Source of the DNA: a virus
Taxonomy: Duplodnaviria > Heunggongvirae > Uroviricota > Caudoviricetes
Reading direction: 5' to 3' (one strand)
IMG/VR virus record: IMGVR_UViG_3300029605_000001
Length of the DNA: 64,000 bases
Numbering within the stretch: position 1 is the first letter of the stretch; every line of letters starts with the position of its first letter. A program made the translations under genes and the position numbers. Positions 7,505 through 60,583 of the stretch are shown here, one piece after another. The notes beneath the pieces were generated by a model that saw nothing but the letters and a program-made list of their open reading frames with translations, was not told the origin of the DNA and did no database searches.

Positions 7505-8428
7505 TTATTACCCTAAAGGCTCTTTATCCTTTAGTTCCATAGATTCATTATTCTCTATGGTTTGGACTATATCTTCACCATCTAAATAATTGAATATATT
7601 TTTACAAAAAACTTCAATTTGTTTTCTTGTTGCAGAAGATTTCATCATATTCGCTAAGGTAGAAATAAAAGCAACGTTTCCTTTTACATATCCTTTTTTA
7701 GGATTAATTCTGTCTAAAGCAGGAGTATCTTCAGCTCTGCCTCCTTCATCTTTAGGGTTATACCAATTAAGTTCTATACCTAAAATAGGACAAACTGGAG
7801 TATATATTTCCTTTAAATCGTCTAAAGTCAAATTAAATGGAACTGCTTTTAATTTAGCTCTACATTTTACTCTTGCTAAGGTATCTTTTAACTTCTCATC
7901 TAAAGACTTTGATGCTTCTTTATTTTGATACCAATTTGCCTTTCGTTCTATTACTTCTGGACGATTATTATATTCCATTGCTTTGATTCTAATCTCTTCT
8001 CTATGAGCCTCTTTATATTTAGCAGAGGCTAACTTCTTTTTTCTCTAATACTCTGGATCAGATTTAATCCTTTCGTATCTCTCGCGCATTTTACGATTTT
8101 TACACTCTTTACATTCACGAAAATGACCATCCTTACTTCTTCTGTCTTTTGTAAATTCCGATAATGGTTTTTCCTATTTACAACAGGTACAAATTTTTGT
8201 TAATTCTTCCATACTAAATAGCTTTTAAGTTATGACTAAATATAACTAAAATTCTTAAACCATCAAAACATATTTTTAGAAGGTGTCCAGTGTTCTTGGA
8301 GTATTTTATTTTCCTAAAAGTTTTTAGGAATCAACTCTAGTCTCTGCGCATTTATAACTATTACTAGTTAGTTTAGCTCAGGATTCCCATCTCAGGGTTC
8401 CCTGAATTAGCTGGATTTAATGACGGCA
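7505..8428 (-). mobile_element. group I-type intron in the DNA ligase gene carrying an HNH endonuclease ORF
   Basis: Ligase motif I (RKLDG) ends ORF 8429..8860. Motifs III-V resume at 7504. The GC-rich segment 8290-8428 contrasts with the AT-rich surroundings. Confidence 0.5.
7508..8212 (-). CDS. HNH-family homing endonuclease with N-terminal zinc ribbon, containing two in-frame TAG codons
   Basis: From ATG 8210-8212: MEELTKICTCCK-TAG-EKPLSEFTKDRRSKDGHFRECKECKNRKMRERYERIKSDPEY-TAG-RKKKLASAKYKEAHREEIRIKA, in frame with ORF 7508..7978. C-terminus LDRINPKKGYVKGNVAFISTLAN matches ORF 46234..46980. TAG complements at plus 8174-8176 and 8045-8047. Confidence 0.6.
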
Positions 8429-8860
8429 TTAAAGCTTACCGTCAAGCTTTCGGCTAATCATCCACTTTTTATTGTAGATTTTAGGATTAGTAACTTTTTC
8501 ACTCTGCTTAGCAAGCTGAGGTTTTATTACACCATATTGATTAGTCTTAACATCCCCGAAGATTTCTTCTAAACTATCAAGACTATAATTATTAGGATGC
8601 TTATCTACTTCTATATAACCTTTATCTTTAAATTTTTTAACTTCACTATTATACTGTAAAGCTAATTGTTCTTTCCAAGTCCTTTTCTGCTTAGTTTTAT
8701 CTATTATTATAGTAGGAGATAAGGTTGTCTTACCTCCTACTTGTCCATAACTTCTTTGTATAATATAACCATGTTCTGGTTCATGCCACTGTTCATCGGA
8801 CTCTACAATTGCAAATCTGAACTTACCAGTAGATGCCTTTCCTAAAAGATATGTAATCAT
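8429..8860 (-). CDS. ATP-dependent DNA ligase, exon 1 (N-terminal region ending in motif I KxDG)
   Basis: ORF ends ...KKWMISRKLDGKL then stop. KLDG matches ligase motif I KxDGxR. Confidence 0.6.
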   Translation of the reverse strand: MITYLLGKASTGKFRFAIVESDEQWHEPEHGYIIQRSYGQVGGKTTLSPTIIIDKTKQKRTWKEQLALQYNSEVKKFKDKGYIEVDKHPNNYSLDSLEEIFGDVKTNQYGVIKPQLAKQSEKVTNPKIYNKKWMISRKLDGKL

Positions 8861-9169
8861 TTATTTACGAAAATCCTTAACAATATTCCATAGATCTTCT
8901 ATAGTTTCTGTTGGGATCTCATTTCCTTCTTCATCCCACATAGTTGCTCCTGGAGGTAATGTGGGTTTCTCAACTAACCACCAGTAGATAGTATAAGCTG
9001 CATCCTCGCCAAAAAGAATTACGATAAGATTATTAAACAAACGTTCTCCATATTCTACCCAATCAATTTCAAGAGGATTACAGTTTAGAACTCTTCCAAC
9101 TTCTTTTAGTTGATTATACCATTTATTTTGCTCTAAAATTAATTTAGTGAATTCTTCTTTAGTAATCAT
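8861..9169 (-). CDS. hypothetical protein
   Basis: 102-aa minus-strand ORF. Confidence 0.3.
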   Translation of the reverse strand: MITKEEFTKLILEQNKWYNQLKEVGRVLNCNPLEIDWVEYGERLFNNLIVILFGEDAAYTIYWWLVEKPTLPPGATMWDEEGNEIPTETIEDLWNIVKDFRK

Positions 9170-9171
9170 AA

Positions 9172-9534
9172 CTAATCCCTAATTTCCAGATAAATATTTT
9201 CGTTACTATCTAGATTATTAAATTCAAGTAATAAAACTTTTAAAAGGTATTCTTTTACATTTCCAATCTCTTTAAAGTAACTATCATTATATGGGTTACT
9301 TTCAAAAGAGAACTCATCTACTATTGGTAATAATTTAGGTGCCAGTAGATGATTTGATAATACCTGATTACACCTAGAAATTAAAATTTCAATATCTTCT
9401 TTACTTATTAGGAATGGAGTTTTATCTTCGGTATCAAATCCTAAATCAGAAAAGTATTTAATTAAAAAGTTTACTTTTCTGAAACTACTTAATTCTAAAG
9501 TTTTCCTTTTTACAAAAACTATACCTAGATTCAT
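9172..9534 (-). CDS. hypothetical protein
   Basis: 120-aa minus-strand ORF. Confidence 0.3.
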   Translation of the reverse strand: MNLGIVFVKRKTLELSSFRKVNFLIKYFSDLGFDTEDKTPFLISKEDIEILISRCNQVLSNHLLAPKLLPIVDEFSFESNPYNDSYFKEIGNVKEYLLKVLLLEFNNLDSNENIYLEIRD

Positions 9535-10055
9535 TATTTAGAATTACTATGTCCAAATCCGCCACCTCTATCTACTCCAAAACTAGTAATATCTTCTAAA
9601 CTTCTAACATTATCCCACTCAATGTGTTCAATCTTATTTAATACAGCTTGAGCTATTCTTTCTCCATCCTCAATCCATATAGTTTCAAATCCTAAATTAA
9701 TAACAGGAATTCCCCATTCTCCTCTATATCCTACATCAATAGTTCCAGGAGTATTTACTACAGATAATCCTTTCTTAATTGCCAGACCACTTCTAGGTCT
9801 AATCTGAACTTCATATCCATCTGGAATAGCTGTAAATATACCAGTAGGAATAATTATTCTAGACATTGGCTCCAATCTAAGCATAGCCAATGAATGACCT
9901 TCTCCTGCAAATATAATACCTCCATCTCCATATATCTTTGGAATGTTATTAGGAGATAGTCTACTAAAATCTGCTCTTAAATCAGCCCCAGCATCTGTAG
10001 GATTATAATATTGTGGATTTGGATTATTAGAATTATTATAAATTTTTACTTTCAT
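9534..10055 (-). CDS. dut: dUTP diphosphatase (trimeric dUTPase)
   Basis: Motifs [40 protein letters not shown]. Confidence 0.85.
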
Positions 10056-10224
10056 AGATAGGAATATTAGTAATTTTATTAAATGTATCTCTAGGTATAA
10101 TTAATTTTTCATCTTCAGTCAACTCATCATAACTATTTACATCTCTAATTGAATAATTAAAGTGATCTATTAACATAAATAATATGTCTTTTGTTAAATC
10201 ATCAGCCTGTAAATTAGTTTTCAT
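10036..10224 (-). CDS. hypothetical protein
   Basis: 62-aa minus-strand ORF. Confidence 0.2.
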
Positions 10225-10724
10225 GCTTGTAGAACTTTAGGAATAAAATTCCCATCTTCAATTACAAGGTAATTCTTATATCCAAGAGAATCACATAACC
10301 ATATATTTTGATTTCCTAATGTAGCTGCTTTCATATTAACTATTTTACTAGTTGTTGTATGCCCTACAACCTGATCATACCCTTTAATATTACAACTACA
10401 TAATGTACCAGGCCTAATCCAAGTTGGAGGTTGAGTTTCTGAATCTCCATAATAATCCAACGGACTATCAGGTGTAAATCCAAATTCTTCTCTTAGGCCA
10501 TAGTCATTAATGTTATGAACATCAGACTCCTTTAAGATTTTCTCCAGCCATACCTTAGATACTCCAGCGTGAGAAAATATAGTTTTTAATTCATCATCTA
10601 TATATACCCAATCGGTTAGTTTAGTAAATCTCATTAGAAACTCAGCACTACTCATTCCAAATGCAACCTCCCTATCATAACCACTACACTCTGCCCAATA
10701 ATATCCTAGATGCTGTGTATCCTT
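10221..10724 (-). CDS. Ser/Thr protein phosphatase (calcineurin-like metallophosphatase), exon 2
   Basis: IFSHAG, PPTWIRPG, GYDQVVGHTTT match the C-terminal half of lambda-PPase/PrpE-type phosphatases. The frame stays open upstream of the listed Met to a TAA at about 10725. Confidence 0.6.
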   Translation of the reverse strand, partial: KDTQHLGYYWAECSGYDREVAFGMSSAEFLMRFTKLTDWVYIDDELKTIFSHAGVSKVWLEKILKESDVHNINDYGLREEFGFTPDSPLDYYGDSETQPPTWIRPGTLCSCNIKGYDQVVGHTTTSKIVNMKAATLGNQNIWLCDSLGYKNYLVIEDGNFIPKVLQA

Positions 10725-11769
10725 TTATGTTTATATTAGTTCGTTAAGCTAATATCAATAGGGTAGTTCATACCCATAGCTCATACTTCCTTATTCGTAT
10801 GAGAACTGACTATCTCACACCCTCGACTTTACTCGTTAGGGGCCGCGCATTTCGAACCACTTGATTCTACTCCCATTTCAGGGATAGTCGATGAGCCTTC
10901 CTCTAATACAGAGGCTTGGTTGACGATTGGCATCTCAGCCGTCTCCTCAGTTAACACGGTTTCGACAGATGATTTCTCATCTGAAGCACAAAATATTTCT
11001 TCAAACTTTAATCTTTTTTCATTACACCAAATAGGAGATTTAGAATACATATACTCGTAAAGACTTCTAGCCTAACCTCTTCCAGAATATTCCATAGTAC
11101 ATACTTTGTTACAGGTAGGAGTATTTAGATTTTTGGCTTTAGAGTAATTTAGTTTAGTCTTTCTTTTTACTATTCCCTTGCTTACAAGAAACTCTTGAAG
11201 TGGTTCAATGAAAGAAATGCATCCAGTAAATGTAAATTTTACGTTATGGACTATTCTTTCCCTCATCTCTCCTGGCTTCTTTTCGTTCTTAACCCACATT
11301 TTCTTTCTTTTACCATTCCAAATACATCCGTCTCCATCAAAATATCCTAATATAAAGGATGACATAAGTTCGCCCGGTATAAACTATGGAAAATTAAGTA
11401 ATAAAGATTTGTTTCTTGGTACTCCTAGATTAACTAAATCCTAACATAATTTTTTGCTATTGATACTTAGTCTGTACACGCCAGGGCTATATGTTCTAAT
11501 AGGGTAATTAGAATCTAGTGCTTTGTTAATTTTCTCTAGTATATCAACTCTTTCTTCTATTTGGTCTAATTCTAGGCAATCCTATCTATTATACCCGTCT
11601 GCGTATATAAACCCCAATATATACGCCTATTCGTGAGTTTTTAACTCACTAAAGTAGTTTTCGTTAAAATCATATTTTCTATACATACAATTAAATAATT
11701 TTGTTTATAGGTAAATATAGTATGATTTCCTCAGATTACCAAATTAAAGTTTGTAATTTTATGATTGCC
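10725..11769 (-). mobile_element. group I-type intron in the phosphatase gene carrying a LAGLIDADG ORF
   Basis: N-terminal phosphatase motifs at 11770-11858 and C-terminal half at 10221-10724 are separated by about 1 kb. That segment holds a GC-rich core (about 10750-10960) and a LAGLIDADG ORF. Confidence 0.45.
11072..11365 (-). CDS. LAGLIDADG homing endonuclease (single-motif)
   Basis: MSSFILGYFDGDGCIW. An upstream in-frame TAG-containing extension exists, but its coding status is unclear. Confidence 0.6.
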   Translation of the reverse strand: MSSFILGYFDGDGCIWNGKRKKMWVKNEKKPGEMRERIVHNVKFTFTGCISFIEPLQEFLVSKGIVKRKTKLNYSKAKNLNTPTCNKVCTMEYSGRG

Positions 11770-12485: not shown

Positions 12486-12488
12486 AAA

Positions 12489-16458: not shown

Positions 16459-18075
16459 CTACACATTCTCAAAGGTACCTCTTAATAAATTATCTCCAAT
16501 GAATAAATCGTAAGACATTCCATATGAATTTCTACTGAAGTTGTAATTAGAATAGTCTGAAGCTCCAAATAGACTCAAAACATTTCTGTAATCTAACCTT
16601 TTACAGGAATTAAGAGAGTTAGAATGTAAATCTCCTTTAATAAAATGAACTCCATTTCCATGAATATTCATTTCATGCAGCCATTCATAAAGCATTACTT
16701 TTGATTTATCATCTAAGTTAAGAGGCAAACCCTTCTTCATATATTGATCGTCTTTACCATGACAACATATAAATACATGATCATTCTGATTAAATACTCC
16801 AAAGAATTCTTCCCACAGTACAGTATTAATGTCAGGATACTTAGCATTTACTATACTTAGTAGAGTTTTATTACACATATATTCCATAATTCCTCCATGA
16901 TTCCCAGTCGGAACAGAATATATATTAACACTTGAACTTACTTTATTGATAACTATGGAGTCAATGAACCACAACATTATACTAATAAAACTGTTAGCTT
17001 GTTCCCTTGCATCCATATTTTCTGGCATTACATGATCAAGTCTAGCAGTTTTCCCAGTAACTCCGCAACAGTCTACATTATCTCCCATTAAGACTAGATT
17101 CATAGTATCAAATGTTCCTACTTGCTGCAGTTTGTTAAGTATAACTGTCAATCTTCTTTTTATTTCATTGATTCCATATTCTGAGTTCTCTTTATATAGA
17201 ACACCTGAAGTTACCTTAGCACCTATATGCATATCAGATATATAGAGATTTATTGACTTTCCAGTTCTGTCATTTTTAGAAAGTCTAATAGGATTTATAT
17301 TATCAGGAATATTTATTGAGAAATTTGATAAATTTCGTAATTCATTCTTTAACTCTATATTTTCTTGAGCATATTTCTTTAAAAGTTTCTCGTTATTTCT
17401 TATTTGATCCTCTTCAGCTTTTCTCAGGAAACTATTTTCCTTTTCCCTTAACTGAATTTCTCTCAGTTCATCTTCTGTACACTCCTCAATCATATGAGGT
17501 GCAAATGGAGCTGAAGCTTTAGTAATATTAAATGCACGAAGTATCCTTTTAAAATCAATTAAAGATAGATCACCAAAGTGTCTAGATATAACTCTTTGAG
17601 TTAATGAATCTCCATAATAAGAATATAACCTATGAATTGTATTCATTTCTTCTCTAGTAAGATTGCCTACTAAAGATGGTTTATTTCTTCTATATATTTG
17701 ATAATGATAAGACGAAATCTTTCCTGTTTCATCCCTTATAAAAGCAACCTTGGATTTATCATCTGTATCAAGTATTTCCTTAGAATTTAACTTATGACAG
17801 GTTACTTCATTATATAATTTTATAAGTTCCTCTATTTCTCTAGATTCTTCATTATTTTGTTTCTTTAAAGTAGATATAGTACTTACTATATTATTGTAAC
17901 TTAAGTTATTTTCAGCACAATATTTACTTAATTTTTTTCCACTAGCTTTTACATCTAGTAGTATTTTAGCGTATTTTACAATAGTTGATTGTTTCATATT
18001 TTTAATTGATTTATTCAAACTTAAATTAAGGTAGTTACACCGAAAAATAAAAAAAACGGCCACCATATTATACAA
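16459..18075 (-). CDS. calcineurin-like metallophosphoesterase domain protein (possible Mre11/SbcD-type nuclease) with N-terminal DNA-binding-like region
   Basis: YISDMHIG, LMGDNVD, TGNHG, ICCHGKDD phosphoesterase motifs. Confidence 0.5.
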   Translation of the reverse strand: MYNMVAVFFIFRCNYLNLSLNKSIKNMKQSTIVKYAKILLDVKASGKKLSKYCAENNLSYNNIVSTISTLKKQNNEESREIEELIKLYNEVTCHKLNSKEILDTDDKSKVAFIRDETGKISSYHYQIYRRNKPSLVGNLTREEMNTIHRLYSYYGDSLTQRVISRHFGDLSLIDFKRILRAFNITKASAPFAPHMIEECTEDELREIQLREKENSFLRKAEEDQIRNNEKLLKKYAQENIELKNELRNLSNFSINIPDNINPIRLSKNDRTGKSINLYISDMHIGAKVTSGVLYKENSEYGINEIKRRLTVILNKLQQVGTFDTMNLVLMGDNVDCCGVTGKTARLDHVMPENMDAREQANSFISIMLWFIDSIVINKVSSSVNIYSVPTGNHGGIMEYMCNKTLLSIVNAKYPDINTVLWEEFFGVFNQNDHVFICCHGKDDQYMKKGLPLNLDDKSKVMLYEWLHEMNIHGNGVHFIKGDLHSNSLNSCKRLDYRNVLSLFGASDYSNYNFSRNSYGMSYDLFIGDNLLRGTFENV

Positions 18076-20363: not shown

Positions 20364-21263
20364 TTACTTAGACGGCAGTATTTCATTAATAATTGCCTAA
20401 ATTCTTTCAAGTTTATTTTCATTGTATTTAATTATAAAGAGCTTTATATTATTTTCTTTACAGTAGTCAGAAAGGGCATTATCTCTTTTTACCTGTTCTT
20501 CATAGTGAATCTATCCTCCAAAATATTCAACAGGCATATAGTGCTACTCTCCATTTACTTCAATAATATATTCTTTCCCATTTAAATTAATGTAAAAATC
20601 AACTAAAACTTTTTTATATAACTGAAAATACTTTTCCTTCTCGAATGGGATTTTACTTTCTTCTAACGCTAAACGAACTAGTTCTTCTCCAGCAGACTCT
20701 CTGCACTTCTAGCAGTTATGTCCAGATAAATGTTTGCCAGCACATTGCCAAAATTCGCCATGCTTGGGACAAATTACACATACTGGAGTGTTCCAAGAAA
20801 TATATTCAACTTTCGAGTAATCATATCTAGATCCATGAACTTCTTTAGCTCTAGTTATAAACTCTTCTATTGTTAATTTTCTTGGTTCATTTTGTTTAAT
20901 GCTTGCACAAGATTTACATCCAAATCTTAGAATATTATCAGCAGTAGTATGTCTAATATTACCACACTTTTTACACTTGACTGTAACATCCTAATAACTT
21001 TTATACTCAATAAAATCATATTTACTAGTATCAAGTTTAGATAAGAAAATCTTTTTAGCCTAAGACGTTCTAGAGCTTTTAACTCCACATTTAGGACATC
21101 CACATTTTGAATTAATTACTGATCGTGGAACTACTTTCCATTCATAACCACAATCTGTACATTTTACAGTTATCTTTTCGTTAGCTCCTTTATAATCTTC
21201 TACTAAAACTAAATTTTTAAATTTTTCAGAAAGTTTATCCTAAATTTCTTTTGTTGTTTTCAT
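20364..21263 (-). CDS. Vsr/DUF559-like (PD-(D/E)xK) endonuclease-family gene with zinc ribbons, containing eight in-frame TAG codons
   Basis: From ATG 21261-21263 a single frame of about 300 codons ends at TAA and is interrupted only by 8 TAG codons: MKTTKEI-TAG-DKLSEKF...CTDCGYEWKVV...CGCPKCG...IIEVNGE-TAG-HYMPVEYFGG-TAG-IHYEEQVKRDNALSDYCKENNIKLFIIKYNE... No TAA or TGA and no frameshift. Confidence 0.65.
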
Positions 21264-22102: not shown

Positions 22103-22301
22103 TTATATCTGAAATTTCTCCAAGTAAAATATCCTGACTGTCTAGGTCATTCTTAAATGTATTCCAATCGTCAGAGTCTGAATAATCAGAAAAATATTCC
22201 ATTATCTTTCCTTGACAATGTCTATAACTTCTAGCTACAAACTTTTTATTGTATACTTTAGATTTACCTATTTCACAGACAGGAATGATATACTCATTCA
22301 T
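22092..22301 (-). CDS. hypothetical protein
   Basis: 69-aa ORF; its ATG overlaps the upstream TGA (ATGA). Confidence 0.3.
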   Translation of the reverse strand: MNEYIIPVCEIGKSKVYNKKFVARSYRHCQGKIMEYFSDYSDSDDWNTFKNDLDSQDILLGEISDINEL

Positions 22302-22851
22302 TGTGATACTTATTTAATAGTTTATAAAAGAAATCTACATCTATAATTGCTACAGTACCTTTACTAATCTCTCCAGCCTTAGAAGATTTTTTCCATATCA
22401 GTACGAATTCTCTAGGATCTGTACAAGAATCTCTAATATCAAAATAATTAGGAAATTTAGCATAATGTTTAGCTTGTATAGCTACATCTAATTCCCCAGA
22501 GGGGTCTGCAATATCAACTTTATTATTATCAAGATTTTTAGATTCTCCAGCTGATCTGCATACATTTGAGTAACCAATACTTTTTAATTTTTCTACTATT
22601 TCATATTCAAGATCTCTTCCTTTAGATTTAGATTTCTTAGCCCTAAAATGTCTGGCTGTGTGCTCATTTAGCCACTGAAACTCAGTATTATCTTTACCCT
22701 TAGTTCCAGGCTTATTGCATCTAATTTTGATAGCTGCAATAGAAATTCCTGTGTAAGCACTAGCTTCTTCTATAGATGAGAACTCCTTGACTGTTCCATC
22801 TTTAAATATAGCCTTACAAGAAGTGTCTAACTCATTCTAACTCTTTTTCAT
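22294..22851 (-). CDS. hypothetical protein (HTH-like N-terminus) whose only start lies upstream of an in-frame TAG
   Basis: ATG 22849-22851: MKKS-TAG-NELDTSCKAIFKDGTVKEFSSIEEASAYTGISIAAIKIRC... 178 open codons follow the TAG with no ATG, GTG or TTG in frame. The ORF track misses it. Confidence 0.5.
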
Positions 22852-22872: not shown

Positions 22873-23883
22873 TTATTTTTCAATTTGTTTTAACTTATTA
22901 GTATAGGTATTAATCAGATTTAATGTAAATTCCCTTCCGTACTTTGCATAAAAATCAGAAAAATCTTTAGCATCATATTTTCTAGGAATAAAAAAATAAT
23001 GGAGTTCTGGATGCTTCTTTTTTATTTTATTCATATTAGCAATTCCAGGCTTATCATTATCATAAAATACAACTATATACTTAAATCTCTTTTTAAGATC
23101 ATCAAGCACTGTATCAGATATAAATAGATTTTCACTATTAGGTGCACAAGCTGTTATACCACAAGAGTACATAGACATGCAGTCCTTCATTGACTTAGTA
23201 ATAACTAATAAATCTCCAGATTTTGGTAGTTGATCAAAACCTTGAATTTTTTTACTTGGCCAATTAGTAATAAATCTAAATGATGTCCTTTTTGGGAAAT
23301 AGCATCTCCATAACTCTATACCTTGATACTTCTTTCCATAATATCCAAAAATTGGACAATGTTGCTGAGATTTAGCAACTAATTGGCCATTAAGGAATAA
23401 ATGTTTACATGAATAAACATTAAAATGTTTAAGAATATCAATTGTAATACCATATTTTTTCCAATACTTTAATTCTAGTTCAGTAAAATCTTGGATTTCT
23501 ACTTGTATCTTAGAAGATTTTTTAATTTCAAGTTTTACTGGATTTTCATTTAGCTTTCCATGATTTTTCTTGAAGACATTTGATGTTAATATTCCAAAAT
23601 CATTAGCTATTATCTTTAAAGAATCAAAGTAATTACAATTAAACATACATTGAACTACTCCAAACACATCTAGATATTGTCCAGTAGCAAAATCCTTAAA
23701 AATTAAAGTTCCAGAGTTATTTCTATAGAAACTACATGTTGGTTTCTTATCTTCTCTTAATGGAGATCTAAATAATCCCTTTTTTACAGGGACATTTAGA
23801 TAATACTCCATTAATTGTTCTTCAGAAAACCTAGATAAAATAAGCTCTTTTGTTAACTTATTAGGTTCAAACGAGAAATTCAT
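22873..23883 (-). CDS. DNA primase (zinc-ribbon plus TOPRIM)
   Basis: FRSPLREDKKPTCSFY resembles the CHC2 zinc-ribbon primase motif. YIVVFYDNDKPG is TOPRIM-like. Confidence 0.65.
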   Translation of the reverse strand: MNFSFEPNKLTKELILSRFSEEQLMEYYLNVPVKKGLFRSPLREDKKPTCSFYRNNSGTLIFKDFATGQYLDVFGVVQCMFNCNYFDSLKIIANDFGILTSNVFKKNHGKLNENPVKLEIKKSSKIQVEIQDFTELELKYWKKYGITIDILKHFNVYSCKHLFLNGQLVAKSQQHCPIFGYYGKKYQGIELWRCYFPKRTSFRFITNWPSKKIQGFDQLPKSGDLLVITKSMKDCMSMYSCGITACAPNSENLFISDTVLDDLKKRFKYIVVFYDNDKPGIANMNKIKKKHPELHYFFIPRKYDAKDFSDFYAKYGREFTLNLINTYTNKLKQIEK

Positions 23884-25571: not shown

Positions 25572-26754
25572 TTTCGTATAACTACATAAATTAGCAAGTA
25601 GTAATCATCTACTCAATTTATGCCAACCGTGTTTCCACGGGAACTGACTAAGTATTCATAAATTCTTAAAATCCTTATATTTCATAAAAACAAACCCTTT
25701 AACACTATCAATCTTCCCATTACAGCAATGGGATATACTTTGTGTTGATACTCCTGTTGCCTTACTAGCAAGTATTGCTGTTCTGTAGATAGCTATTAAA
25801 TTGTTCTTTAAGTCAAACTGACAAACACTATTTGGGGCATAATTAACAACTGGAGTATTATCATTTTTATATCTCCAAATGTAACCCCCCGCTGTATTAT
25901 GATTTGGTCTATGAGCACAACAGTGTCCAATATTCGCTCTGTCTATACCTAGAACTCTAGCAGCTTCAGATATTGAAGGCCATTCCTTTATTAATTCTCC
26001 ATTTTTGGAGAACTGCTTAATATATTCACCTTGTAATTCGGTTATTGAATCTTTGACTTTCTTCTTAGTTTCTTTAGAGCGTTTTATTCCTTTTAATCCT
26101 TCTGAGATTTTTTTTCTGGTCACTTCGTCTCTAGGTACGCCTCTGATCTTGGAAGCTCTTAGCTCAATACTTTCTTTACTGAAGTGCTGATTACCGTCAC
26201 CTCCATCAGTTAGGTTAGTTAGATTGAATCCCCACACTTTCATCTGGGAAATCCAATACTGTTCAAACCATTTCCAGTCCTCATTATCATCAAATTGAAG
26301 TGAGTCTAACTCCTCTATAATAATAGAATATCCCTCATCTAATTCATGATTAATCCAATTATAGTTATGGTTTTTATAATTACCTAACTTTTTGGCTTTC
26401 CTTGCATCACATAAGTGACCTTGTAATCTCCTCTTTAGTGTTTGTTTTGTTTTTCCTATATACCTAATATTATTTAGGTCCCTAGTCGAGCTCAATGTGT
26501 AAATCTTAATTTCCATATCAGTAATATTTAATATTACAAATATAGATTAATTATTTTACACATCAAAGGATTTTTAAAAAATTTACATCCCCATTTCAAA
26601 AACAGGCGATTAACTCTGTTTCTTACGTAGCCGATCCGCTACTAGTCAATACACGCGCCCGGAATTACTTCCTGCTTGGCTCGGCATTAGCATACATTTA
26701 GTCTCACGACTCAAGCTCCAGCCTTCACCGAATTAGGGGTTATACAGGCAATTA
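25572..26754 (-). mobile_element. group I-type intron-like element carrying a GIY-YIG endonuclease ORF
   Basis: GC-rich structured segment 26600-26750 (much higher GC than surroundings). GNRA-capped hairpin CCGTG-GAAA-CACGG at 25615-25627. The GIY-YIG ORF is looped between them, as in T4 td/I-TevI. Confidence 0.45.
25656..26516 (-). CDS. GIY-YIG homing endonuclease (I-TevI-like) with NUMOD-type HTH repeats; no in-frame TAG
   Basis: IYTLSSTRDLNNIRYIGKT (GIY...YIG), RRLQGH, EQYWISQ, NLTDGGDG. Two HTH repeats ISEAARVLGIDRANIGHCC and ILASKATGVSTQSISHCC. Confidence 0.8.
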   Translation of the reverse strand: MEIKIYTLSSTRDLNNIRYIGKTKQTLKRRLQGHLCDARKAKKLGNYKNHNYNWINHELDEGYSIIIEELDSLQFDDNEDWKWFEQYWISQMKVWGFNLTNLTDGGDGNQHFSKESIELRASKIRGVPRDEVTRKKISEGLKGIKRSKETKKKVKDSITELQGEYIKQFSKNGELIKEWPSISEAARVLGIDRANIGHCCAHRPNHNTAGGYIWRYKNDNTPVVNYAPNSVCQFDLKNNLIAIYRTAILASKATGVSTQSISHCCNGKIDSVKGFVFMKYKDFKNL

Positions 26755-42839: not shown

Positions 42840-43306
42840 ACTTTAATACCTAATTCGTTAACTAATCTCTGTGCTATAGCTGCGTCACTGTTATTTATAG
42901 CACTTATTATTAGCTTAGTATAAGAGCTAATAGAATACCCAGAGGATAATGCTTTAAGAGCATTTTGAACACAGTTAATAGTAAAACTGATACGCTCAGT
43001 AGTACTCATCATAGCACTACTAAGTACTCTATACTCCACCATCTAGGTTCTCTCCTAGATAAGACTTTCTCTTCACCTCCACCATTACGTGCTGAGGGGA
43101 TCCTATAAAGTCGTTACACCTTCCTCATTAGAGGCTTGGCTCGGGATTCCTGATGCTAGTTCCCCGAATTTAGGATCTTTCCAACTATTATTTCTAATAG
43201 CCCTGGCATTATAATACTTTCTATTCATAAAAGTATTAGCATCGTTATAAATATTATCTATAAACTGAATTATTCCCTCTTTATTATATATCTCAAAATC
43301 GTACAT
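42827..43306 (-). CDS. probable 3' exon region of the second amidoligase gene (ORFs 43103..43306 and 42827..43042)
   Basis: Two short ORFs follow the LAGLIDADG-containing insertion and are separated by a GC-rich patch (43040-43160). Assignment is by position and weak similarity to the amidoligase copy 1 C-terminus. Confidence 0.25.
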
Positions 43307-43381
43307 TTTTGTACCTTTGGGAGTGGTCTTTTCTCTTAAGAGACAATTAATTCCGTGAGCTTTAACAAAGTCATAAATAAT

Positions 43382-43957
43382 CTATATATGCTCTTTACAA
43401 GCACTAGTAATATTTACTTCTTTTATAGATTCCCAGCGGAAGTAGCCATCTCCTTCAAATACTCCTCGTATATAATCCCAAGTTATATTAAAGTTAGGAA
43501 CAAAGTTAAAGGTCTTATTATTTCCAAATCCTAGGATTAATAGAAAGTCTGTAATTTCTTTATTTCTAAATGAAACAGAAACCATTTCAAACTTACCATG
43601 ATGAATAGTATGTTTAATAACTAATTTCTTGGAAACAAAATCTCTAAATTTTTCTATTACATCAATATCTTTTATAGATAGAGATAAAGTAACTCTAGTT
43701 TCTTTATGAGATATGCATCCATCGGTCGCTAACCATCCTAACCAGTATAATACATCAGGATTTGAAAGATCAGCAAAAGGATTATTACACACTTTCTTTC
43801 TTCTAAAATCTGGATATTCTATACCGACTTCAGAACACATTCTTTTAAAAGTTCTGTAATCAGTTCTTAGCTCTTGTTTTACAAAACGAGCTTTTGGAAC
43901 CTAATTTTTAAGATTCTCTTTAACTAATTCGATTTCTTCTTCAGTAAAATGTCTCAT
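43382..43957 (-). CDS. LAGLIDADG homing endonuclease (double-motif) with N-terminal HTH; one in-frame TAG
   Basis: ATG 43955-43957: MRHFTEEEIELVKENLKN-TAG-VPKARFVKQELRTDYRTFKR, in frame with ORF 43382..43840. Motifs LGWLATDGCIS and IRGVFEGDGYF. TAG complement at plus 43901-43903. Confidence 0.6.
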
Positions 43958-44360: not shown

Positions 44361-44577
44361 AGATTTTGATATAGTTCGGCGTACATTTTCTTCCTTATAA
44401 TAAGGAAGAGGACACTCTTGGAGAGATTATATTTATTCACTCTCTACGCTCTACAATACCCAGCAGCCTTTCGCAATCTTCTGGGTTATCACGGTATTTA
44501 AACAATAAATAACTTAACATCTTACTTTGTTTCCTCTCTAAAAAGAAATGTTTATTAAAATATAACTTGTTATACAA

Positions 44578-45205
44578 CTAATCTATAAACTTTTTACGAT
44601 TATATCCTGAACTAAATCTTAGAGTATAAAGAATCATCTTACTCTTTTGTACTCCTTCTACTCTTTTCTCTACACCAAATTCTTGCTCAAACAATTTTCC
44701 TAATTTTGTCATAAACTCTTTAGATGTCCCATATAAAGCAAACGTCATTTGATGAGTTTTTTCAGAATAGGAAATTTGTCCGTCTCCATCAAAAAATCCT
44801 CTAATGAAATCCCACACAAATTCTTTAGGAACCTTGTCAAAAGGAAATTGGAAAGAAGTATCACAAGTCTTCTTTGGAGTAATATTATAGAGTTCTAAGT
44901 CTTTGTTCATTATACTAGATGTCCATATTAAATTGTAAGATCCTTTATGATTTGTGCCATTCTTGTCAGTAAATGGAGCTTTATATACAGGCTCCTTTTC
45001 TGGAACAATAAAATCTCTAAACCAATTAATAACACTAATATCACTTTCTTGCAAATGAACAGAAAATCTATATGATTCAGTACATCTAGCCCCTAATCCA
45101 TAGGTTCCATCAGCTAAGAAGAAACCTAATAGATAAGCCTTCTATTCAGAGTCAATTACTCTGAAAAAATCGTCGTTAACATTATATTTTCTTTTCATAA
45201 TTACT
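44578..45205 (-). CDS. LAGLIDADG homing endonuclease (double-motif); one in-frame TAG
   Basis: ATG about 45203-45205: MKRKYNVNDDFFRVIDSE-TAG-KAYLLGFFLADGTYGL..., in frame with ORF 44578..45054 (IRGFFDGDGQIS). TAG complement at plus 45143-45145. Confidence 0.6.
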
Positions 45206-46065: not shown

Positions 46066-47075
46066 TATGTTATCGTAGAGTTCTTTATCTCTACTTCTGC
46101 ATGTTCTTGTTCCATGCAGATCGGACTATATCTTCATCATTTGTTGTAATTTACAAAAATTGTATAACTAAATTTCACATTCCAAATTATTTGTAATATT
46201 TTTGTATAGAATCCACAGATAAATTAATAATCAATGACTAAAATTACTAAATCTATGAATGTAGAAAGCATAATACAGGATTACAAAAACGGAATGAAAA
46301 TGGCAGAAATTGCTAGAAAAAATCATGTTGCTAATAGCACTATAAGTGGGTATATTAGACCACTTAATCTTCCAACTAGTAAAGTTATAAATAGCATTAA
46401 TAACTGGGAAGGATTTAAAGAATTTTTTATAGAAACTTATAACTCTACAGATTCAATGCAAGAGATTTATGACAAATTATTACAACATCCTTATTTCAAG
46501 AGAACTACAAGAAAATCTATTTCTCAAAGAGTAACTGAAATAAGAAATTTGTTTGGATTATCTCCAAAAGTGCCAGAAAATACTTACAACACTGAATATG
46601 ATAGAATCAGAGGTTACATGATAAGAAATTCTAAATATTGTGCTAAAAGAAGAGGAATATATTTTAACTTAAAATACACTGATTTTGAGCTTCCAGAATA
46701 CTGTCCTATCCTAGGAATAAAAATAGAATATGAAGGAGATGGAAACTCTCCCAATCACGCTACTTTGGACAGAATAGATAATTCAAAAGGATATATTCCA
46801 GGAAATGTTATGGTCATTTCTAGACTTGCTAATGCTATGAAAAACGAAGCTACTTTTGAGCAGCTTCAATCTTTTATAACTAATTATACTTATTTAATAA
46901 ACTACATGAATGAGCACGGCACTCTTGGGAATATTACTGACATATTTCCTCATTGGAAGAAACTTAGTCTCGATTCCTAGTCTCTGAACCCACTCCAATC
47001 TTTAGACTGAAGCTCGGCTGCTGATTACCATCTCAGGCGTCCCAGCAATTCACCGTGTTTAAAGAGAGCCACAAC
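46066..47075 (-). mobile_element. about 1 kb insertion splitting the C26 peptidase gene; carries an HNH endonuclease gene on the opposite strand
   Basis: Exon 1 ends at the nucleophile motif GICRG (47059..47322). Exon 2 resumes with QFLCVMNGG. GC-rich segment 46980-47058. Confidence 0.5.
46234..46980 (+). CDS. HNH-family homing endonuclease with N-terminal HTH (only sizeable plus-strand gene)
   Basis: IAEIARKNHVANSTISGY (HTH). C-terminal CPILGIKIEYEGDGNSPNHATLDRIDNSKGYIPGNVMVISRLAN, paralogous to 7508..7978. Confidence 0.75.
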   Translation: MTKITKSMNVESIIQDYKNGMKMAEIARKNHVANSTISGYIRPLNLPTSKVINSINNWEGFKEFFIETYNSTDSMQEIYDKLLQHPYFKRTTRKSISQRVTEIRNLFGLSPKVPENTYNTEYDRIRGYMIRNSKYCAKRRGIYFNLKYTDFELPEYCPILGIKIEYEGDGNSPNHATLDRIDNSKGYIPGNVMVISRLANAMKNEATFEQLQSFITNYTYLINYMNEHGTLGNITDIFPHWKKLSLDS

Positions 47076-47322
47076 TTAACCCTCTACATATACCGACACA
47101 TAATTGTGTTGGTTTAACTTGTTCGAAGATAGACTTTTCATATAAATCTCTATCTAGATTAGACATAGTATATGTATGCTTAGTCTTATTATACAAAGAC
47201 GGATCAACGTCTTCTCCTCCAGTAAATAATACTATATCTGCTTCTTCTAGAGAATCAGTTATGGTGGCATTTTTTATAAAGGAGGTATAGCCAACACTAC
47301 CCCCAACTACATAAATTTTCAT
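47059..47322 (-). CDS. C26-family peptidase / GATase-like, exon 1
   Basis: MKIYVVGG...DIVLFTGGEDVDPSLY...LCVGICRGL. The nucleophile Cys motif GICRG is directly followed by out-of-context residues and a stop. Confidence 0.55.
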   Translation of the reverse strand: MKIYVVGGSVGYTSFIKNATITDSLEEADIVLFTGGEDVDPSLYNKTKHTYTMSNLDRDLYEKSIFEQVKPTQLCVGICRGLSCGSL

Positions 47323-49859: not shown

Positions 49860-49871
49860 ATTTATTATTTG

Positions 49872-49942
49872 CATACCCTGAAGGACTCGAACCTCCAACG
49901 ACGGTTTTGGAGACCGGCATGTTACCATTACACCAAGGATAC
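49872..49942 (-). tRNA. tRNA-Trp (CCA)
   Basis: Acceptor GTATCCT/AGGGTAT (two G-U pairs). Anticodon loop CTCCAAA. T-arm GGAGGTTCGAGTCCTTC. Confidence 0.55.
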
Positions 49943-50595: not shown

Positions 50596-50662
50596 GGGGT
50601 ACATACTGGACTCGAACCAATATTATCTACGCAACATTCTAACCGATTGAAATAATGTACCC
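50596..50662 (-). tRNA. atypical tRNA-like gene (67 nt; shares its acceptor with tRNA-Asp; 8-nt anticodon-position loop GCGUAGAU)
   Basis: Acceptor GGTACAT/ATGTACC. T-arm ATTGGTTCGAGTCCAGT. Stem ATGTT/AATAT enclosing GCGTAGAT. No canonical 7-nt loop fits. Confidence 0.35.
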
Positions 50663-55977: not shown

Positions 55978-56582
55978 TTAGGAATTATGATACTTCCACT
56001 TATATCTATAAGCCGATTTTCTTTTACCAGAACAAACCAGAGAAATGGCACTATGTCCAGTCTTACAATCAATAATTCCGTGATTAACTAACCACTAATA
56101 AGCAGAATCAAATGACTAAAAAGTCTATATGTAATTTCCAGCCATATCATATTGATCTACTTTTTTGCATTTAGTTAATTTTACTCCAGATGCCTTTAAT
56201 ACTTTGCGTACTGTAGAAGCATCACATTTCATTTTACTGGCTATATTATTTGGAGAATATCCTAAATTATATAAGTCTATGATTTCTCTATGATCATACA
56301 GAATAGAGCCATCACCTCCTTTGGTAGCATTATAACCATAGGTTTGTAGCTCACGTATCCAGTAGATTTCTCTTTCAGATAATTTATCATTATCTACTAC
56401 TTCTATACTTTAAAATTTTCAACCCCATACTTTCTCATAGCATCATAAAGAGGTCTCTTTTCACATCTCTCTTTGAAAGCATCACAACAATGCTATTTAA
56501 ATCTTTCCTCAATATTGGAAGTAGTTTTTCCAATATATTTCTTACTATTAATCAGATTCGTTATACAATAAATACATCCCAT
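55978..56582 (-). CDS. I-TevI-like GIY-YIG homing endonuclease with four in-frame TAG codons and an apparent frameshift
   Basis: ATG 56580-56582: MGCIYCITNLINSKKYIGKTTSNIEERFK-TAG-HCCDAFKERCEKRPLYDAMRKYGVENFKV. The frame then changes at AATTTTAAAGTA to SIEVVDNDKLSEREIYWIRELQTYGYNATKGGDG...IASKMKCDASTVRKVLKASG...GNYI-TAG-TF-TAG-SFDSAY-TAG-WLVNHGIIDCKTGHSAISLVCSGKRKSAYRYKWKY, ending at TAA. The tail parallels I-TevI. Confidence 0.55.
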
Positions 56583-57035
56583 AATTATTACTTTATGTCT
56601 ACATTAGCGTTACCCAGAATATACCACATGGAGGTTGTAGACTTATATTCCTAAATAAACCATTCACCCTTAGCCGCAGAATATTCTCCCATTGAGAATA
56701 TTCTTAAAATTTTATACATTATTTCCTAATTATAGGAATCATACAACTAGGTGTTAAGACTTTGCTTTGTAACACTTTCTTAATACATAACTTAAAGATT
56801 CTTATCATAACTTTACAAATTTAGTTAATAAATATATAATCTAAAATTCTAATTATGCAAATGAAGAAATTTTCAGTTAAAACGTAAGGATTTTAATTTA
56901 GGAATTACCCCAACCTATAATTAAAATCCATACGTGTTACTACAAGAGCCTCCCAGTTTATTTAGGTGATGTTGCACCTCAGCAGTTTCTTGTTGAAACT
57001 CTTTCAAAGTCACTGGTTTATAGATTACCAAGAAA

Positions 57036-57224: not shown

Positions 57225-57581
57225 AAATTTAATTTAAAATTAATAGTTGGGTTACTAACTGATTTTATATAAGTAAGTTGTCCCAGAGGAGTACGATTCC
57301 CCAATTTCAGGATCAAAACCTGACGTGTTACCAATTACACCATGAGACAATAATCTGATTACTCTTCTGGATTAGATTTATAATAGTCTATCCAGTAATT
57401 GGCCTCCATATCTTCGGCGATTTCTTTCATTTCTTCATCAGATAAATTTTCATAAGGATCATTCTTTTCCTCTTCTTATTCAGAAATTTACTATAAAAAG
57501 GCTTTTCCTTGATTTTTATATCAGGAATTTTCATCATTTCCTTCAGTTCTTCTGGAAATCTAAGTGGTATGCTAGAACCTT

Positions 57582-58287: not shown

Positions 58288-58363
58288 TGGGAGTAGAAGG
58301 ACTTGAACCTCCAGTCTCCGAAGAGAACAGATTTACAGTCTGCGCGGCTACCGATTACACTCC
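58288..58363 (-). tRNA. tRNA-Tyr (GUA)-like, long variable arm, shortened D-arm
   Basis: Anticodon stem GCAGA/TCTGT with loop CTGTAAA. Variable arm TCTCTTCGGAGAC. T-arm GGAGGTTCAAGTCCTTC. Acceptor imperfect. Confidence 0.45.
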
Positions 58364-58430
58364 AAAAAAAAATTTAAATACTGCTATCTTCACAGACTGT
58401 AGTATTCTCTAAATAATATTTACTACGCAG

Positions 58431-58534: not shown

Positions 58535-59024
58535 TTATAGTAATTTTCTACTGTCTTTAATTTCCTATGTAATTTCAAGACTGCCTCTATGTACTTTTGA
58601 ATGGTGATTAGCACATAACACTATTAGATTATCAACATCATTGTTGTTATGATTATAATCAATATGATGTACTTCTAGTACATATAGTGCATTCTTTTAT
58701 ATAAGTCCTATAAGCTGCTATTATGTGTGTATTATTTCCTACTCGTCCTCCTTTCCAATTAGGATTATTTTCTCTAGTTCTAAAGTGAGAATTGTTGTAA
58801 GAACATGATTTATCACAAAAAACATTTCCAGTTTTACTCTTTGCTATTTCAGAAGGAGTTTTTAATAATTCCTTTCCACAATTAGCACAAGTACATTTTA
58901 TTTTCTTTGACTTAGATCTACATTCCTAAGAACAATACATCTTCCATCCTTTTTTCAATGATTCATTTACCTTATTTGTGGGCTTGTCGAATTCTTTTCC
59001 ACAATAATCACATTTTATTATCAT
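58535..59024 (-). CDS. HNH endonuclease with zinc ribbons, one or two in-frame TAG codons and an apparent +1 frameshift
   Basis: ATG 59022-59024: MIIKCDYCGKEFDKPTNKVNESLKKGWKMYCS-TAG-ECRSKSKKIKCTCANCGKE...RTYIKECTICT. The frame then shifts to ...LEVHHIDYNHNNNDVDNLIVLCANHHSKVHRGSLEIT-TAG-EIKDSRKLL, ending at TAA. Confidence 0.5.
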
Positions 59025-59039
59025 ATTCAAAATTTTTAG

Positions 59040-59111: not shown

Positions 59112-59171
59112 ATTTACAGTAGAAATTGTGCTCCCAAAGCACGCATCATAGACCTACTACCCTAAATAATG

Positions 59172-59256
59172 TGAATCCACTGGGACTCGAACCCAGACTC
59201 TTCGGATTAAAAGTCCGAGGCTTTCGACCTAAGTCTACCAATTAAGCTATGGATTC
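59172..59256 (-). tRNA. tRNA-Lys (UUU) with an enlarged D-loop (about 20 nt, containing an extra hairpin)
   Basis: Acceptor GAATCCA/TGGATTC. D-stem GCTT/AAGC enclosing AATTGGTAGACTTAGGTCGA. Anticodon stem TCGGA/TCCGA with loop CTTTTAA. T-arm CTGGGTTCGAGTCCCAG. Confidence 0.5.
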
Positions 59257-59263
59257 ATCTATG

Positions 59264-59342
59264 CGTACACGGTAGGAATCGAACCTACGTTGGGGACTTC
59301 TCCACGGCGGGTTAACGGCCCGCTGCCATCGACCACATGTAC
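59264..59342 (-). tRNA. tRNA, probable Asn (GUU) but with C33 and a long extra arm; noncanonical
   Basis: Acceptor GTACATG/CGTGTAC. Hairpin GCGGG-CCGTTAA-CCCGC. T-arm GTAGGTTCGATTCCTAC. D region short. Confidence 0.35.
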
Positions 59343-59817
59343 AGTTTGCTGCCTATTAATTAAGCAAAGGATATCTCCCATAATACCAATATTAATTAAT
59401 TACAGCTGAGTTATTTTTATTACCAATTCAATAACTAAAGGTAAGAGTATCATGCCCTAGAACTCTCAAATAGGTATCCATTTTAGGATGAATAAGCCTG
59501 GTTATCTTCAGGATAACCTCCGTGGGATTAATAGATGTTGGCTGTTTCTATCCTATCATTGCGTTGCCAACTAACTACTTGTCAATAGGAGCATAAAGTG
59601 AATAGCAGATACATTTTTCAGTATCACTTTAAATGCGGAGGACTCTGCTATATTTCATACAGTTAAATGTTTGTCGCAACCTCACATACTAGCGATTGCA
59701 CCTGACTATTTATATTCACAAATACAGAGCACAGTTTACTAGAGTTTCATTTTTACCAATATACTAGAAATTTTGCTGTCTGTGCTTTTATAATTTACTA
59801 TCATAAGTATTTAATTG

Positions 59818-59890
59818 AGCGGGTAGAGGGAGTTAAACCCTCGTCCTTAGGTTGGAGGCCTAATATAATAATCGCTATACGATACCCGCG
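59818..59890 (-). tRNA. tRNA-Gly (UCC), C at position 33
   Basis: Acceptor GCGGGTA/TACCCGC. Anticodon stem TTAGG/CCTAA with loop CCTCCAA. T-arm GAGGGTTTAACTCCCTC. Confidence 0.5.
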
Positions 59891-60103
59891 TGATTATCTT
59901 ACTCTTTTATCGACTCTAGTACAATTTCTGTTTCTAGATCCAAAGTTCTCTGTTAAAGAATGGCAGTTAGGGCACAACAACTGAAGATTCTCCTCTTTAT
60001 TGTTTGTACAATCACCGTCTATGTGATGGATCTACAATGGAACTAACCCAGTATAAGGATTTACTTCATGCCATCCGCATTTTTGACAAGAATTATTATG
60101 TGT

Positions 60104-60583
60104 TTCAAACAAGTATCTTCTAACATGGTTAGAAACATCGGTCGAACACTTTGTTCTACTAACTTCATTGTTTTTCCACTTGTTTATGTAATCCTTATAT
60201 TCACCCTAACATTTATTAGAGCAATATTTTCTGACAGAAGGTATTTCCTTACCACAATTTAAGCAATATGAATGTTCTGAAAACATGACTCTATTACCTA
60301 CATTATTAAATGTAGCAGCACAAGAGTGACTACAGAAATCATTTTGTCTTTTCTCATAAGGTATAACCTCATTACAGTATTTACACCTTTTAGGATTCAA
60401 CTCATACTTACTTCGAGTAGTCTTAGATTTAATATGAGAAGTATTAATCTCATTTTCTTCTATAAACTCTCTAAGTTTCTTTCTGTTAGAGGTGTTATCA
60501 TGTACCCCGAGCATTTGTAATACCTATCCAAGATATTCTACTTCTTGTATAGCCTCTATCAATTCGTCCTTAGTTATTTCACT
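60104..60583 (-). CDS. Cys-rich zinc-finger protein; reading frame continues through TAG at both ends of ORF 60206..60514
   Basis: ATG about 60581-60583: MRKFSEITKDELIEAIQEVEYLG-TAG-VLQMLGVHDN..., in frame with the listed ORF. Listed ORF stops at TAG (complement at 60206-60208). The frame stays open for 34 more codons to a TGA near 60104. Multiple CxxC pairs. Confidence 0.35.

Follow-up and report, generated by a model that had tools for sequence, protein, structure and literature searches.

According to Yutin et al. 2021 (Nat Commun 12:1044, PMC7886860), the crAss-like phages of the Zeta group have genomes of 145–192 kb, suppressor tRNAs and up to 14 introns per genome, and TAG is reassigned to glutamine or TGA to tryptophan, mostly in late genes, with recoded TGA also present in intron open reading frames (ORFs), for which the Zeta PolB gene is an example. 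Borges et al. (bioRxiv 10.1101/2021.08.26.457843; Nat Microbiol 2022) propose that recoded in-frame stops delay the endonuclease of a group I intron in an early gene. Here we describe the TAG-interrupted nuclease genes in a stretch of 64,000 nucleotides (the window) of the Caudoviricetes virus record IMGVR_UViG_3300029605_000001, which is the early block (replication, nucleotide metabolism and tRNA genes) of a human-gut crAss-like phage. We consider it highly probable that this phage reads TAG as glutamine with a suppressor tRNA of its own, and that TAG codons placed close to the start codon delay the nucleases encoded in the early block.

The minus strand was translated with only TAA and TGA as stops, which joins the fragments obtained under genetic code 11 into seven intact nuclease ORFs of 185–299 amino acids (aa), while two further nuclease genes are read in two frames. 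The TAG-bearing nuclease genes are:

7508..8212, minus strand: EndoVII/HNH-like endonuclease ORF, 234 aa, two TAGs (codons 13 and 56); matches phrog_1035 endonuclease VII (3.8e-25) over aa 5–219.
10829..11686, minus strand: LAGLIDADG endonuclease ORF, 285 aa, five TAGs, the first at codon 20, just ahead of the first LAGLIDADG motif.
20364..21263, minus strand: DUF723 nuclease, 299 aa, zinc-ribbon repeats and a PD-(D/E)XK-like domain, seven TAGs, the first at codon 8; matches Pfam DUF723 (1.6e-12) and phrog_559 (6e-56).
22294..22851, minus strand: Hjc-like nuclease, 185 aa, NUMOD-like helix-turn-helix (HTH) and Hjc-like PD-(D/E)XK domain, a single TAG at codon 5; phrog_244.
43085..43957, minus strand: LAGLIDADG endonuclease ORF, 290 aa, TAGs at codons 19, 192 and 285; LAGLIDADG_3 (3.9e-12) across the TAG at 43384.
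44437..45198, minus strand: LAGLIDADG endonuclease ORF, 253 aa, TAGs at codons 19 and 207; LAGLIDADG_3 (3.2e-11).
55978..56582, minus strand: GIY-YIG endonuclease gene in two frames, four TAGs, −1 shift near 56400; GIY-YIG (1.5e-8).
58535..59024, minus strand: HNH endonuclease gene in two frames, two TAGs, +1 shift near 58680; phrog_1271; between tRNA-Pro and tRNA-Ala.
59894..60595, minus strand: zinc-ribbon and HNH endonuclease ORF, 233 aa, TAGs at codons 24, 130 and 188; HNH (7.4e-5) and DUF2116 (6e-8).

An earlier reading of the window (the original prediction) had listed seven genes as needing TAG as a sense codon; all of them are present on the minus strand, each with a TAG-interrupted frame, and the LAGLIDADG ORF at 10829–11686 and the DUF723 nuclease are two more. 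Two LAGLIDADG genes had been placed at 43382..43957 and 44578..45205 with one TAG apiece; the genes themselves stand, but since both sets of coordinates end at a TAG, they extend to 43085 and 44437 and hold three and two TAGs, and a zinc-finger gene placed at 60104..60583 with one or two TAGs is likewise real but larger (59894–60595), with three TAGs and a C-terminal HNH domain. The TAG counts proposed for the GIY-YIG gene (four) and the HNH gene at 58535..59024 (one or two; here two) agree with ours, although reading through TAG is insufficient in both, the frameshifts near 56400 and 58680 being required too. The claim that the only start codon of the gene at 22294..22851 lies upstream of a TAG is borne out by the TAG at codon 5, and under code 11 no ORF of at least 60 aa is found in the gap.

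One alternative is that these ORFs are decaying homing-endonuclease pseudogenes, their stops being ordinary inactivating mutations. Homing endonuclease genes do decay after fixation, and two of the nine (GIY-YIG 55978–56582 and HNH 58535–59024) are truly frameshifted, both shifts being common to the window and an independent Joint Genome Institute (JGI) assembly; these two are probably decaying copies. The seven intact ORFs, on the other hand, hold 23 TAGs and not a single TAA or TGA in 1,779 codons, while TAG makes up 27% of the off-frame stops in the same ORFs (P = 1.2e-13 for all 23 being TAG). Complete Pfam and PHROG domains (LAGLIDADG, HNH/EndoVII, DUF723) extend across the in-frame TAGs, a check that had been suggested for the recoded frames, and the TAG at codon 188 of 59894–60595 falls inside the HNH motif (PL-TAG-IHHIDGD). 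In addition, one TAG stands at a near-invariant glutamine, a cognate suppressor tRNA lies on the contig, and the pattern is repeated in diverged relatives. Decay is therefore effectively refuted for the seven intact ORFs, and as a general account of the TAG-bearing genes it is extremely improbable. Programmed frameshifting at the GIY-YIG gene was also considered and rejected, since a slippery heptamer of the classical −1 type is out of register with the zero frame; Yutin et al. (PMC7886860) report Zeta-group genes with unexplained frameshifts.

Coding density supports the reading of TAG as sense. On the minus strand of the window it rises from 74.4% under code 11 to 82.7% with TAG as sense, which is the outcome of the proposed comparison of code 15 with code 11 and exceeds both controls (TAA read as sense, 77.9%; TGA read as sense, 77.7%), where the gain consists only of short ORFs in tRNA and intergenic DNA. 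When the region is annotated under code 11, nine nuclease genes are missed or cut short, and some 8% of the strand seems non-coding. The 54 early core genes contain no TAG in 12,763 codons, against about 182 expected at the TAG share of the nuclease genes; the claim of TAG-free core genes is thereby confirmed, together with the TAA stops at 424, 3302 and 12489, with the restriction that the absence of TAG holds only for the early core genes within the window. Other features of the window that bear on TAG use are:

6719..7504, minus strand: DNA ligase exon 2, TAG-free; PF01068 profile positions 38–204.
8429..8860, minus strand: DNA ligase exon 1, TAG-free; ends at motif I (...SRKLDGKL).
16459..18075, minus strand: early gene ORF ending at a TAG, with the next in-frame TAA 17 codons on.
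22873..23883, minus strand: primase (Toprim), TAG-free, upstream neighbour of the Hjc-like nuclease gene.
25656..26516, minus strand: GIY-YIG/NUMOD1 endonuclease ORF with no TAG, a counter-example.
46234..46980, plus strand: EndoVII-like endonuclease ORF, TAG-free; phrog_3322 (2.7e-28), with RF00028 (32.3 bits) at 46843–47117.

The ligase gene is split, the endonuclease ORF 7508–8212 lying between exon 1 and exon 2, in agreement with the HNH gene with two TAGs that had been proposed in a ligase intron. Further early ORFs that end at TAG are 9172–9534, 42827–43042 and 60838–61215, with the next stop one, three and four codons on. The idea that TAG-terminated early genes carry backup stops (at 1, 17, 4, 3 and 5 codons) was discarded, such distances being the same as in the control (median 8; 39% within 5).

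The contig of the window continues past its right end in the sequence L003 (the same contig by 12,787 aligned bases with a single gap), and there a canonical tRNA with the anticodon CUA and the loop CUCUAAA is found at L003:3173–3245 (ARAGORN; Rfam tRNA, E = 2.7e-12, 63.3 bits). It shares the contig and strand of the tRNA cluster and is separated from window position 64000 by about 4.3 kb. The tRNA with a CUA anticodon, whose search had been proposed as a test of the recoding, is thus present, outside the window; within the window ARAGORN and Rfam, with doubtful calls read by hand, gave no CUA tRNA. Odd ARAGORN anticodon calls ('ca', 'taga') were read manually as possible suppressors and both candidates were rejected, as the element at 61670–61743 is a CAU tRNA, and the one at 62897–62975, with an 8-nt loop containing UAGA and a score under the Rfam threshold, is not a CUA tRNA. 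Two phage tRNAs of the window resemble the suppressor:

57277..57349, minus strand: tRNA-Gln(UUG), similar to the suppressor tRNA in its acceptor stem (U1-A72, G2-C71, A73) and D arm.
49871..49942, minus strand: tRNA-Trp(CCA), whose anticodon stem-loop is one anticodon base off that of the suppressor.

The suppressor tRNA is 67% identical to tRNA-Trp and equally to tRNA-Gln, and it looks chimeric, with an acceptor stem and discriminator like those of tRNA-Gln(UUG) and an anticodon stem-loop like that of tRNA-Trp(CCA) (the two stem-loops, GGUCUCUAAAACC and GGUCUCCAAAACC, are one base apart). Its origin would therefore seem ambiguous, while the decoding evidence favours glutamine.

This chimeric appearance is what a rival reading draws on, in which TAG is decoded as a residue other than glutamine, with tryptophan or pyrrolysine as candidates: the anticodon arm is that of the phage tRNA-Trp save one base, the overall identity to tRNA-Trp is as given above, and ARAGORN labels the tRNA 'tRNA-Pyl', by the anticodon alone. 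Codon counts and alignments indicate that TAG is a glutamine codon here. CAA and CAG together make up 3.10% of core-gene codons and 1.52% of those in the TAG-bearing nuclease ORFs, where the addition of TAG brings the share to 2.81%, so that TAG makes up the deficit in glutamine codons. The TAG at codon 240 of the DUF723 nuclease lies in a QGxQH motif with glutamine at that site in 90 of 99 distant homologues, tryptophan not being among the residues listed there; the remaining six TAG sites of this protein fall in variable columns, and in TAG/non-TAG pairs with the paralogue from the relative L084, glutamine is found in 5 of 13. TAG is also exchanged for CAA- or CAG-encoded glutamine in orthologues (GMGI-TAG-TG vs GMGIQSG; MAKK-TAG-V vs MAKKQV), and the acceptor stem (U1-A72, G2-C71) and A73 discriminator of the suppressor are those of the phage tRNA-Gln. 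No pyl genes were seen in approx. 85 kb, and for crAss-like phages, metaproteomic evidence that TAG encodes glutamine is given by Peters 2022 (PMC9523058). A non-glutamine reading is thus hardly credible.

Near the suppressor tRNA, a RAGATH-1 hammerhead ribozyme match was observed at L003:4666–4740 (59.7 bits, gathering score 56.3), on the strand of the genes; it falls about 2.8 kb outside the window, to the right, where many tRNA genes separate the suppressor tRNA from the window. A hepatitis delta virus (HDV)-like Rfam hit at 56597–56651 drew attention because suppressor tRNAs are accompanied by theta ribozymes (PMC10879173), but it was set aside as chance (weak, no adjoining tRNA, folding z-score 0.14). 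The window also has a set of tRNA-like elements (50597–50661, 62897–62975, 59818–59889, 58288–58364 and 37745–37798), among them a 65-nt element without a clear anticodon arm, a tRNA-Gly(UCC) with C33 that ARAGORN does not call, a tRNA-Tyr(GUA) under the Rfam threshold and a truncated element with a CCU anticodon.

Outside the window TAG is used densely. In L003, a 73-codon C-terminal fragment of a non-nuclease gene (9–227) has four TAGs, a protease-like gene (1469–1819; phrog_15610, 3.9e-40) has five, and another non-nuclease gene (2025–2441) has 11 in 139 codons. In the orthologous region of the relative L084, which has a tRNA(CUA) of its own, TerL has 20 TAGs, the portal gene at least five and the lysin gene 10 (TerL and portal by PHROG matches, both on the opposite strand and divergently oriented from the lysin region). 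Expressed as a share of glutamine-type codons (TAG, CAA and CAG), TAG exceeds half in the genes just past the window and in the packaging and lysis genes of the relative, and it reaches about 58% in late genes, with no positional bias (8/14 vs 71/123, P = 1). The corresponding share in neighbouring core genes of 60–70 IMG/VR relatives is 0–6%, with 25 TAGs among 766 such codons for the primase across 70 relatives, and in L085 and L086 (contigs of 160 and 168 kb) the helicase, DnaB, primase and NrdD genes have no TAG and the DUF723 nuclease gene has four. The NrdD gene of L086 (16527–19847) is a TAG-free ORF of 1,106 aa with an intein carrying a LAGLIDADG domain; a selfish element of this in-frame kind must let the host protein be made and so stays TAG-free.

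The amber codon is thus reassigned genome-wide in this clade, and the restriction of TAG to nuclease genes is seen in the window because the latter merely covers the TAG-free early block. Amber reassignment or suppression, as originally predicted, is supported by the tRNA(CUA), the complete domains, the coding density and the TAG-dense genes outside the window. The accompanying restriction of TAG to accessory and selfish genes does not hold genome-wide, where TerL, portal and lysin of the relative and non-mobile genes in L003 are recoded. As a practical consequence, this region and clade need gene calling that is aware of code 15, even where the core genes look standard.

Three classes of TAG usage are present in one genome: none in early core genes, dense use in late genes and start-proximal use in early-block nucleases. 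The first TAG falls at codon 5–24 in all seven intact nuclease ORFs (13, 20, 8, 5, 19, 19 and 24). By permutation, random placement yields a maximum this low with P = 2.5e-5 and a sum this low with P = 1.7e-4, and shuffling the labels within the glutamine-type codons gives P = 0.004; in Fisher's test, codons 1–25 of the seven ORFs differ from the remainder with P = 0.017. Each N-terminal segment belongs to a homologous domain or has no alternative start codon. It could be argued that the recoding is real and that TAG in the early block is neutral drift (e.g., CAG to TAG in an AT-rich genome) in genes not needed before the suppressor, with no gate at all. Such drift would fit the use of TAG throughout late genes with no positional bias, the dispensability of homing endonucleases to the phage, the near loss of CAG from the nuclease ORFs (5 CAG vs 23 TAG), as C-to-T drift predicts, and the two nuclease ORFs without any TAG. 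However, it does not predict a TAG within codons 5–24 of all seven ORFs, nor the conservation seen in the Hjc-like nuclease gene.

This gene (22294–22851) starts with MKKS-TAG-NELDTSCK and lies directly downstream of the primase gene, in an order that is the same in L085, L086 and 80 IMG/VR contigs. With synteny kept in more than 80 relatives, it lacks the intron location or variable presence of homing endonuclease genes, and its gene order marks it as an Hjc-like nuclease conserved in position and not as a mobile element, which corrects its earlier grouping with accessory and selfish genes. A TAG at codon 3–9, just before a conserved (E/D)LNTSC segment, occurs in 33 of 39 representatives (<85% identity). 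The glutamine-type codons of these genes comprise 33 TAG and one CAA within the first ten codons, and six TAG and 137 CAA or CAG in the rest (Fisher P = 1.5e-28). As the flanking residues and the exact position (codon 3–9) of the start-proximal TAG vary among relatives, what appears to be conserved is the TAG codon itself and not a structural glutamine. A lone start-proximal TAG in 33 of 39 orthologues, with CAA or CAG at 137 of 143 sites elsewhere, is again not predicted by drift, which we judge to be rather unlikely as the explanation.

A profile of 18 orthologues matches the PDB Hjc chains (1hh1, 2eo0, 4tkd) weakly, with E of approx. 8e-4 to 1e-3, and Pfam PDDEXK_15 matches 16 and Hjc 8 of the 18, all under the curated cut-offs. 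The likeness to archaeal Hjc and to phage PD-(D/E)XK resolvases, at the level of these weak matches, concerns the C-terminal domain; the difference from archaeal Hjc is the extra N-terminal NUMOD-like HTH, and resolvase activity is putative. An HTH of the NUMOD-like kind is typical of homing endonucleases, and phage resolvases are typically late-acting.

The code mismatch could also reflect the origin of the endonuclease genes and not their regulation, if they were acquired horizontally from TAG-recoded phages. Close homologues of the DUF723 nuclease (60–87% identity) are indeed found on other gut-phage contigs of 160–175 kb, and the Lera study (PMC12386605) reports that Zeta phages which are otherwise near-identical vary in the homing endonucleases they carry. 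Acquisition would leave unexplained both the N-terminal placement of TAG and the conserved TAG of the non-mobile, syntenic Hjc-like gene, and, being compatible with a suppressor-dependent delay, it is no alternative to the decoding mechanism. As an explanation of its own it is decidedly unlikely.

The genes needed before the suppressor is available (polymerase, ribonucleotide reductase (RNR), sigma factor, helicases, primase, ligase exons and others) contain no TAG. Under the delay that we favour, as long as the suppressor is scarce, host RF1 would end the nuclease ORFs after a few codons, and once the suppressor has accumulated, full-length nuclease would be produced. The nucleases of the early block would in this way be transcribed with the early genes and translated on a late schedule, which would apply to homing endonucleases and to a probable DNA-structure nuclease alike. 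More tentatively, the lone start-proximal amber (M-x2-7-TAG) may be a selected, suppressor-tRNA-dependent switch for nucleases of early operons, namely the conserved Hjc-like nuclease and most of the endonucleases, whether intron-encoded or free-standing, and distinct from the dense use of TAG in structural genes; for this narrower proposal we see the chances as slightly below even.

Several points weigh against the interpretation of glutamine decoding and delayed nucleases. The anticodon arm of the suppressor is Trp-like and its charging identity is read from alignments; the late-gene recoding comes from about 2.4 kb of the phage's contig (L003:1–2441) and a relative; and the sequence covered for a release-factor gene or a suppressor-activating factor amounts to about 85 kb. 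Two of the nuclease ORFs with TAG contain frameshifts and are possibly dead, two nuclease ORFs of the window are TAG-free (25656–26516 and 46234–46980), and the start codons are predicted ones. The start-proximal TAG is missing in 6 of 39 relatives of the Hjc-like gene, and these relatives share phylogeny, so the Fisher P overstates their independence, although the position of the TAG (codon 3–9) and the residues around it differ between them. Finally, the timing of the suppressor tRNA and of the nuclease genes is something we infer entirely from the sequence.

The window is approx. 30% GC, with almost all genes on the minus strand and about 20 tRNA genes, and its Pfam content includes a family A DNA polymerase (N-terminal part), a sigma-70-type factor, the RNR large subunit, a Toprim primase, DnaB-like and SNF2-like helicases, an ATP-dependent ligase fragment, an SPFH protein, and amidoligase and glutamine amidotransferase (GATase) genes. 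Identical or near-identical sequence recurs in human-gut metagenome contigs of 74,938, 140,069 and 161,785 bp, the last two being JGI 3300045988 Ga0495776_089080 and ENA ERZ918344 k127_105108. Identity of the PolA fragment to that of two crAss-like phages, cr128_1 and crAss001, is 59%, and relatives that share the gene order of the window, including the syntenic nuclease, have genomes of 150–197 kb. The phage is most likely of the large-genome Zeta type, judging by these sequence comparisons; its contigs of 140,069 and 161,785 bp, which are possibly partial genomes, stand against a Zeta range of 145–192 kb, and the crAss-like affiliation is based on the PolA comparison, and the Zeta placement on this comparison and on the genome sizes of the relatives. 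Polymerase type is reported to switch within crAss-like phages (PMC7886860). With 8 kb of the window as the query, megablast against GenBank phages gave no match, relatives there being found at the protein level only (at most 59%), and an exact 41-mer of the contig had no match in IMG/VR. A scan of metagenome contigs with the HNH protein of L003 as the query returned unrelated HNH genes only, and in the PD-(D/E)XK exonuclease family of the relative (3,116 members) the phage studied here was not visibly among the best 120 listed.

With eleven nuclease ORFs in 64 kb and with the ligase and PolA genes split, the density of introns and endonucleases is very high. Rfam matches to group I introns are found only at 46097–47117, under the gathering score, and these flank the plus-strand ORF 46234–46980, which lies, unusually, on the strand opposite its host gene, a glutamine-amidotransferase-like gene that is apparently split into 45685–46053 and 47059–47322. 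The PolA gene (424–1914; L002:11543–13377) is split at the left edge of the window by a LAGLIDADG ORF whose sole TAG precedes the TGA by 13 codons and is either its stop or the beginning of a short extension; the exon for the C-terminal part of PolA falls beyond the window. The RNR large-subunit ORF (12489–14291) begins at Pfam profile position 79, with a 193-aa ORF (14368–14949) 76 nt upstream, and the two may be another split gene or the upstream ORF a separate N-terminal domain. A full-length sigma-70-family factor (regions 1.2, 2, 3 and 4) is encoded at 3302–4156; crAss-like phages are noted for an unusual RNA polymerase of their own. A 637-aa SPFH/Band-7 gene (37912–39825) sits in the 2-kb bin of highest GC in the window (0.39 vs approx. 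0.30 elsewhere). Finally, a 54-nt in-frame stretch at 10423–10476 (gene 10221–10655) is present in the window and missing from ENA and Logan assemblies that are otherwise identical; a tandem repeat was ruled out as the source of this difference.

Compared with the known systems, the phage shares with the Zeta crAss-like phages its human-gut origin, a crAss-like PolA, relatives of 150–197 kb, a large set of tRNAs with a suppressor among them, TAG in late and not early genes, dense introns and endonuclease ORFs, and recoded stops in intron ORFs. Another parallel is phage T4, in which the translation of intron endonucleases such as I-TevI is delayed by late promoters and by sequestration of the ribosome-binding site in early transcripts. 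The likeness is that homing endonucleases in introns of early genes stay untranslated until late; the T4 mechanism is one of RNA structure and promoter choice, whereas here the delay would come from a switch of code brought about by a suppressor tRNA.

A parallel in terms of gating is the system of Borges et al., where early genes likewise keep the standard code, late and lysis genes are recoded and the phage encodes a suppressor tRNA. The example given there concerns a single endonuclease family of Agate phages with recoded TGA, unlike the present case, where TAG is recoded in a crAss-like phage, nine nuclease genes of five folds are concerned within 64 kb, and the evidence is positional (codon 5–24) and extends to conservation across a clade. 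The gating of endonuclease expression suggested in the original prediction is accordingly plausible and gains comparative support here from the start-proximal TAGs, but it is not new, since it was already put forward in that preprint (10.1101/2021.08.26.457843). A positional analysis of recoded stops was not found in a search of the preprint by terms, nor was a description of a start-proximal bias or of a single conserved N-terminal TAG in an Hjc-like nuclease found in those of PMC7886860 and PMC12386605.

TAG-to-glutamine recoding, suppressor tRNAs, the split between an early and a late code, and dense introns are all published, and the system described here is a correct rediscovery of a known kind, with gating also proposed before by Borges et al. 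Possibly new are the start-proximal bias and the clade-wide lone N-terminal amber in a non-mobile nuclease. The case is a clean and quantifiable example for the hypothesis that stop-codon recoding serves as a timing device, and a non-mobile nuclease that keeps a lone N-terminal TAG throughout its clade would be a compact, testable reporter for the timing of the code switch. If the proposal is true, it would add to the known systems the first comparative (selection-based) evidence of a phage code switch acting as a gene-specific timer.

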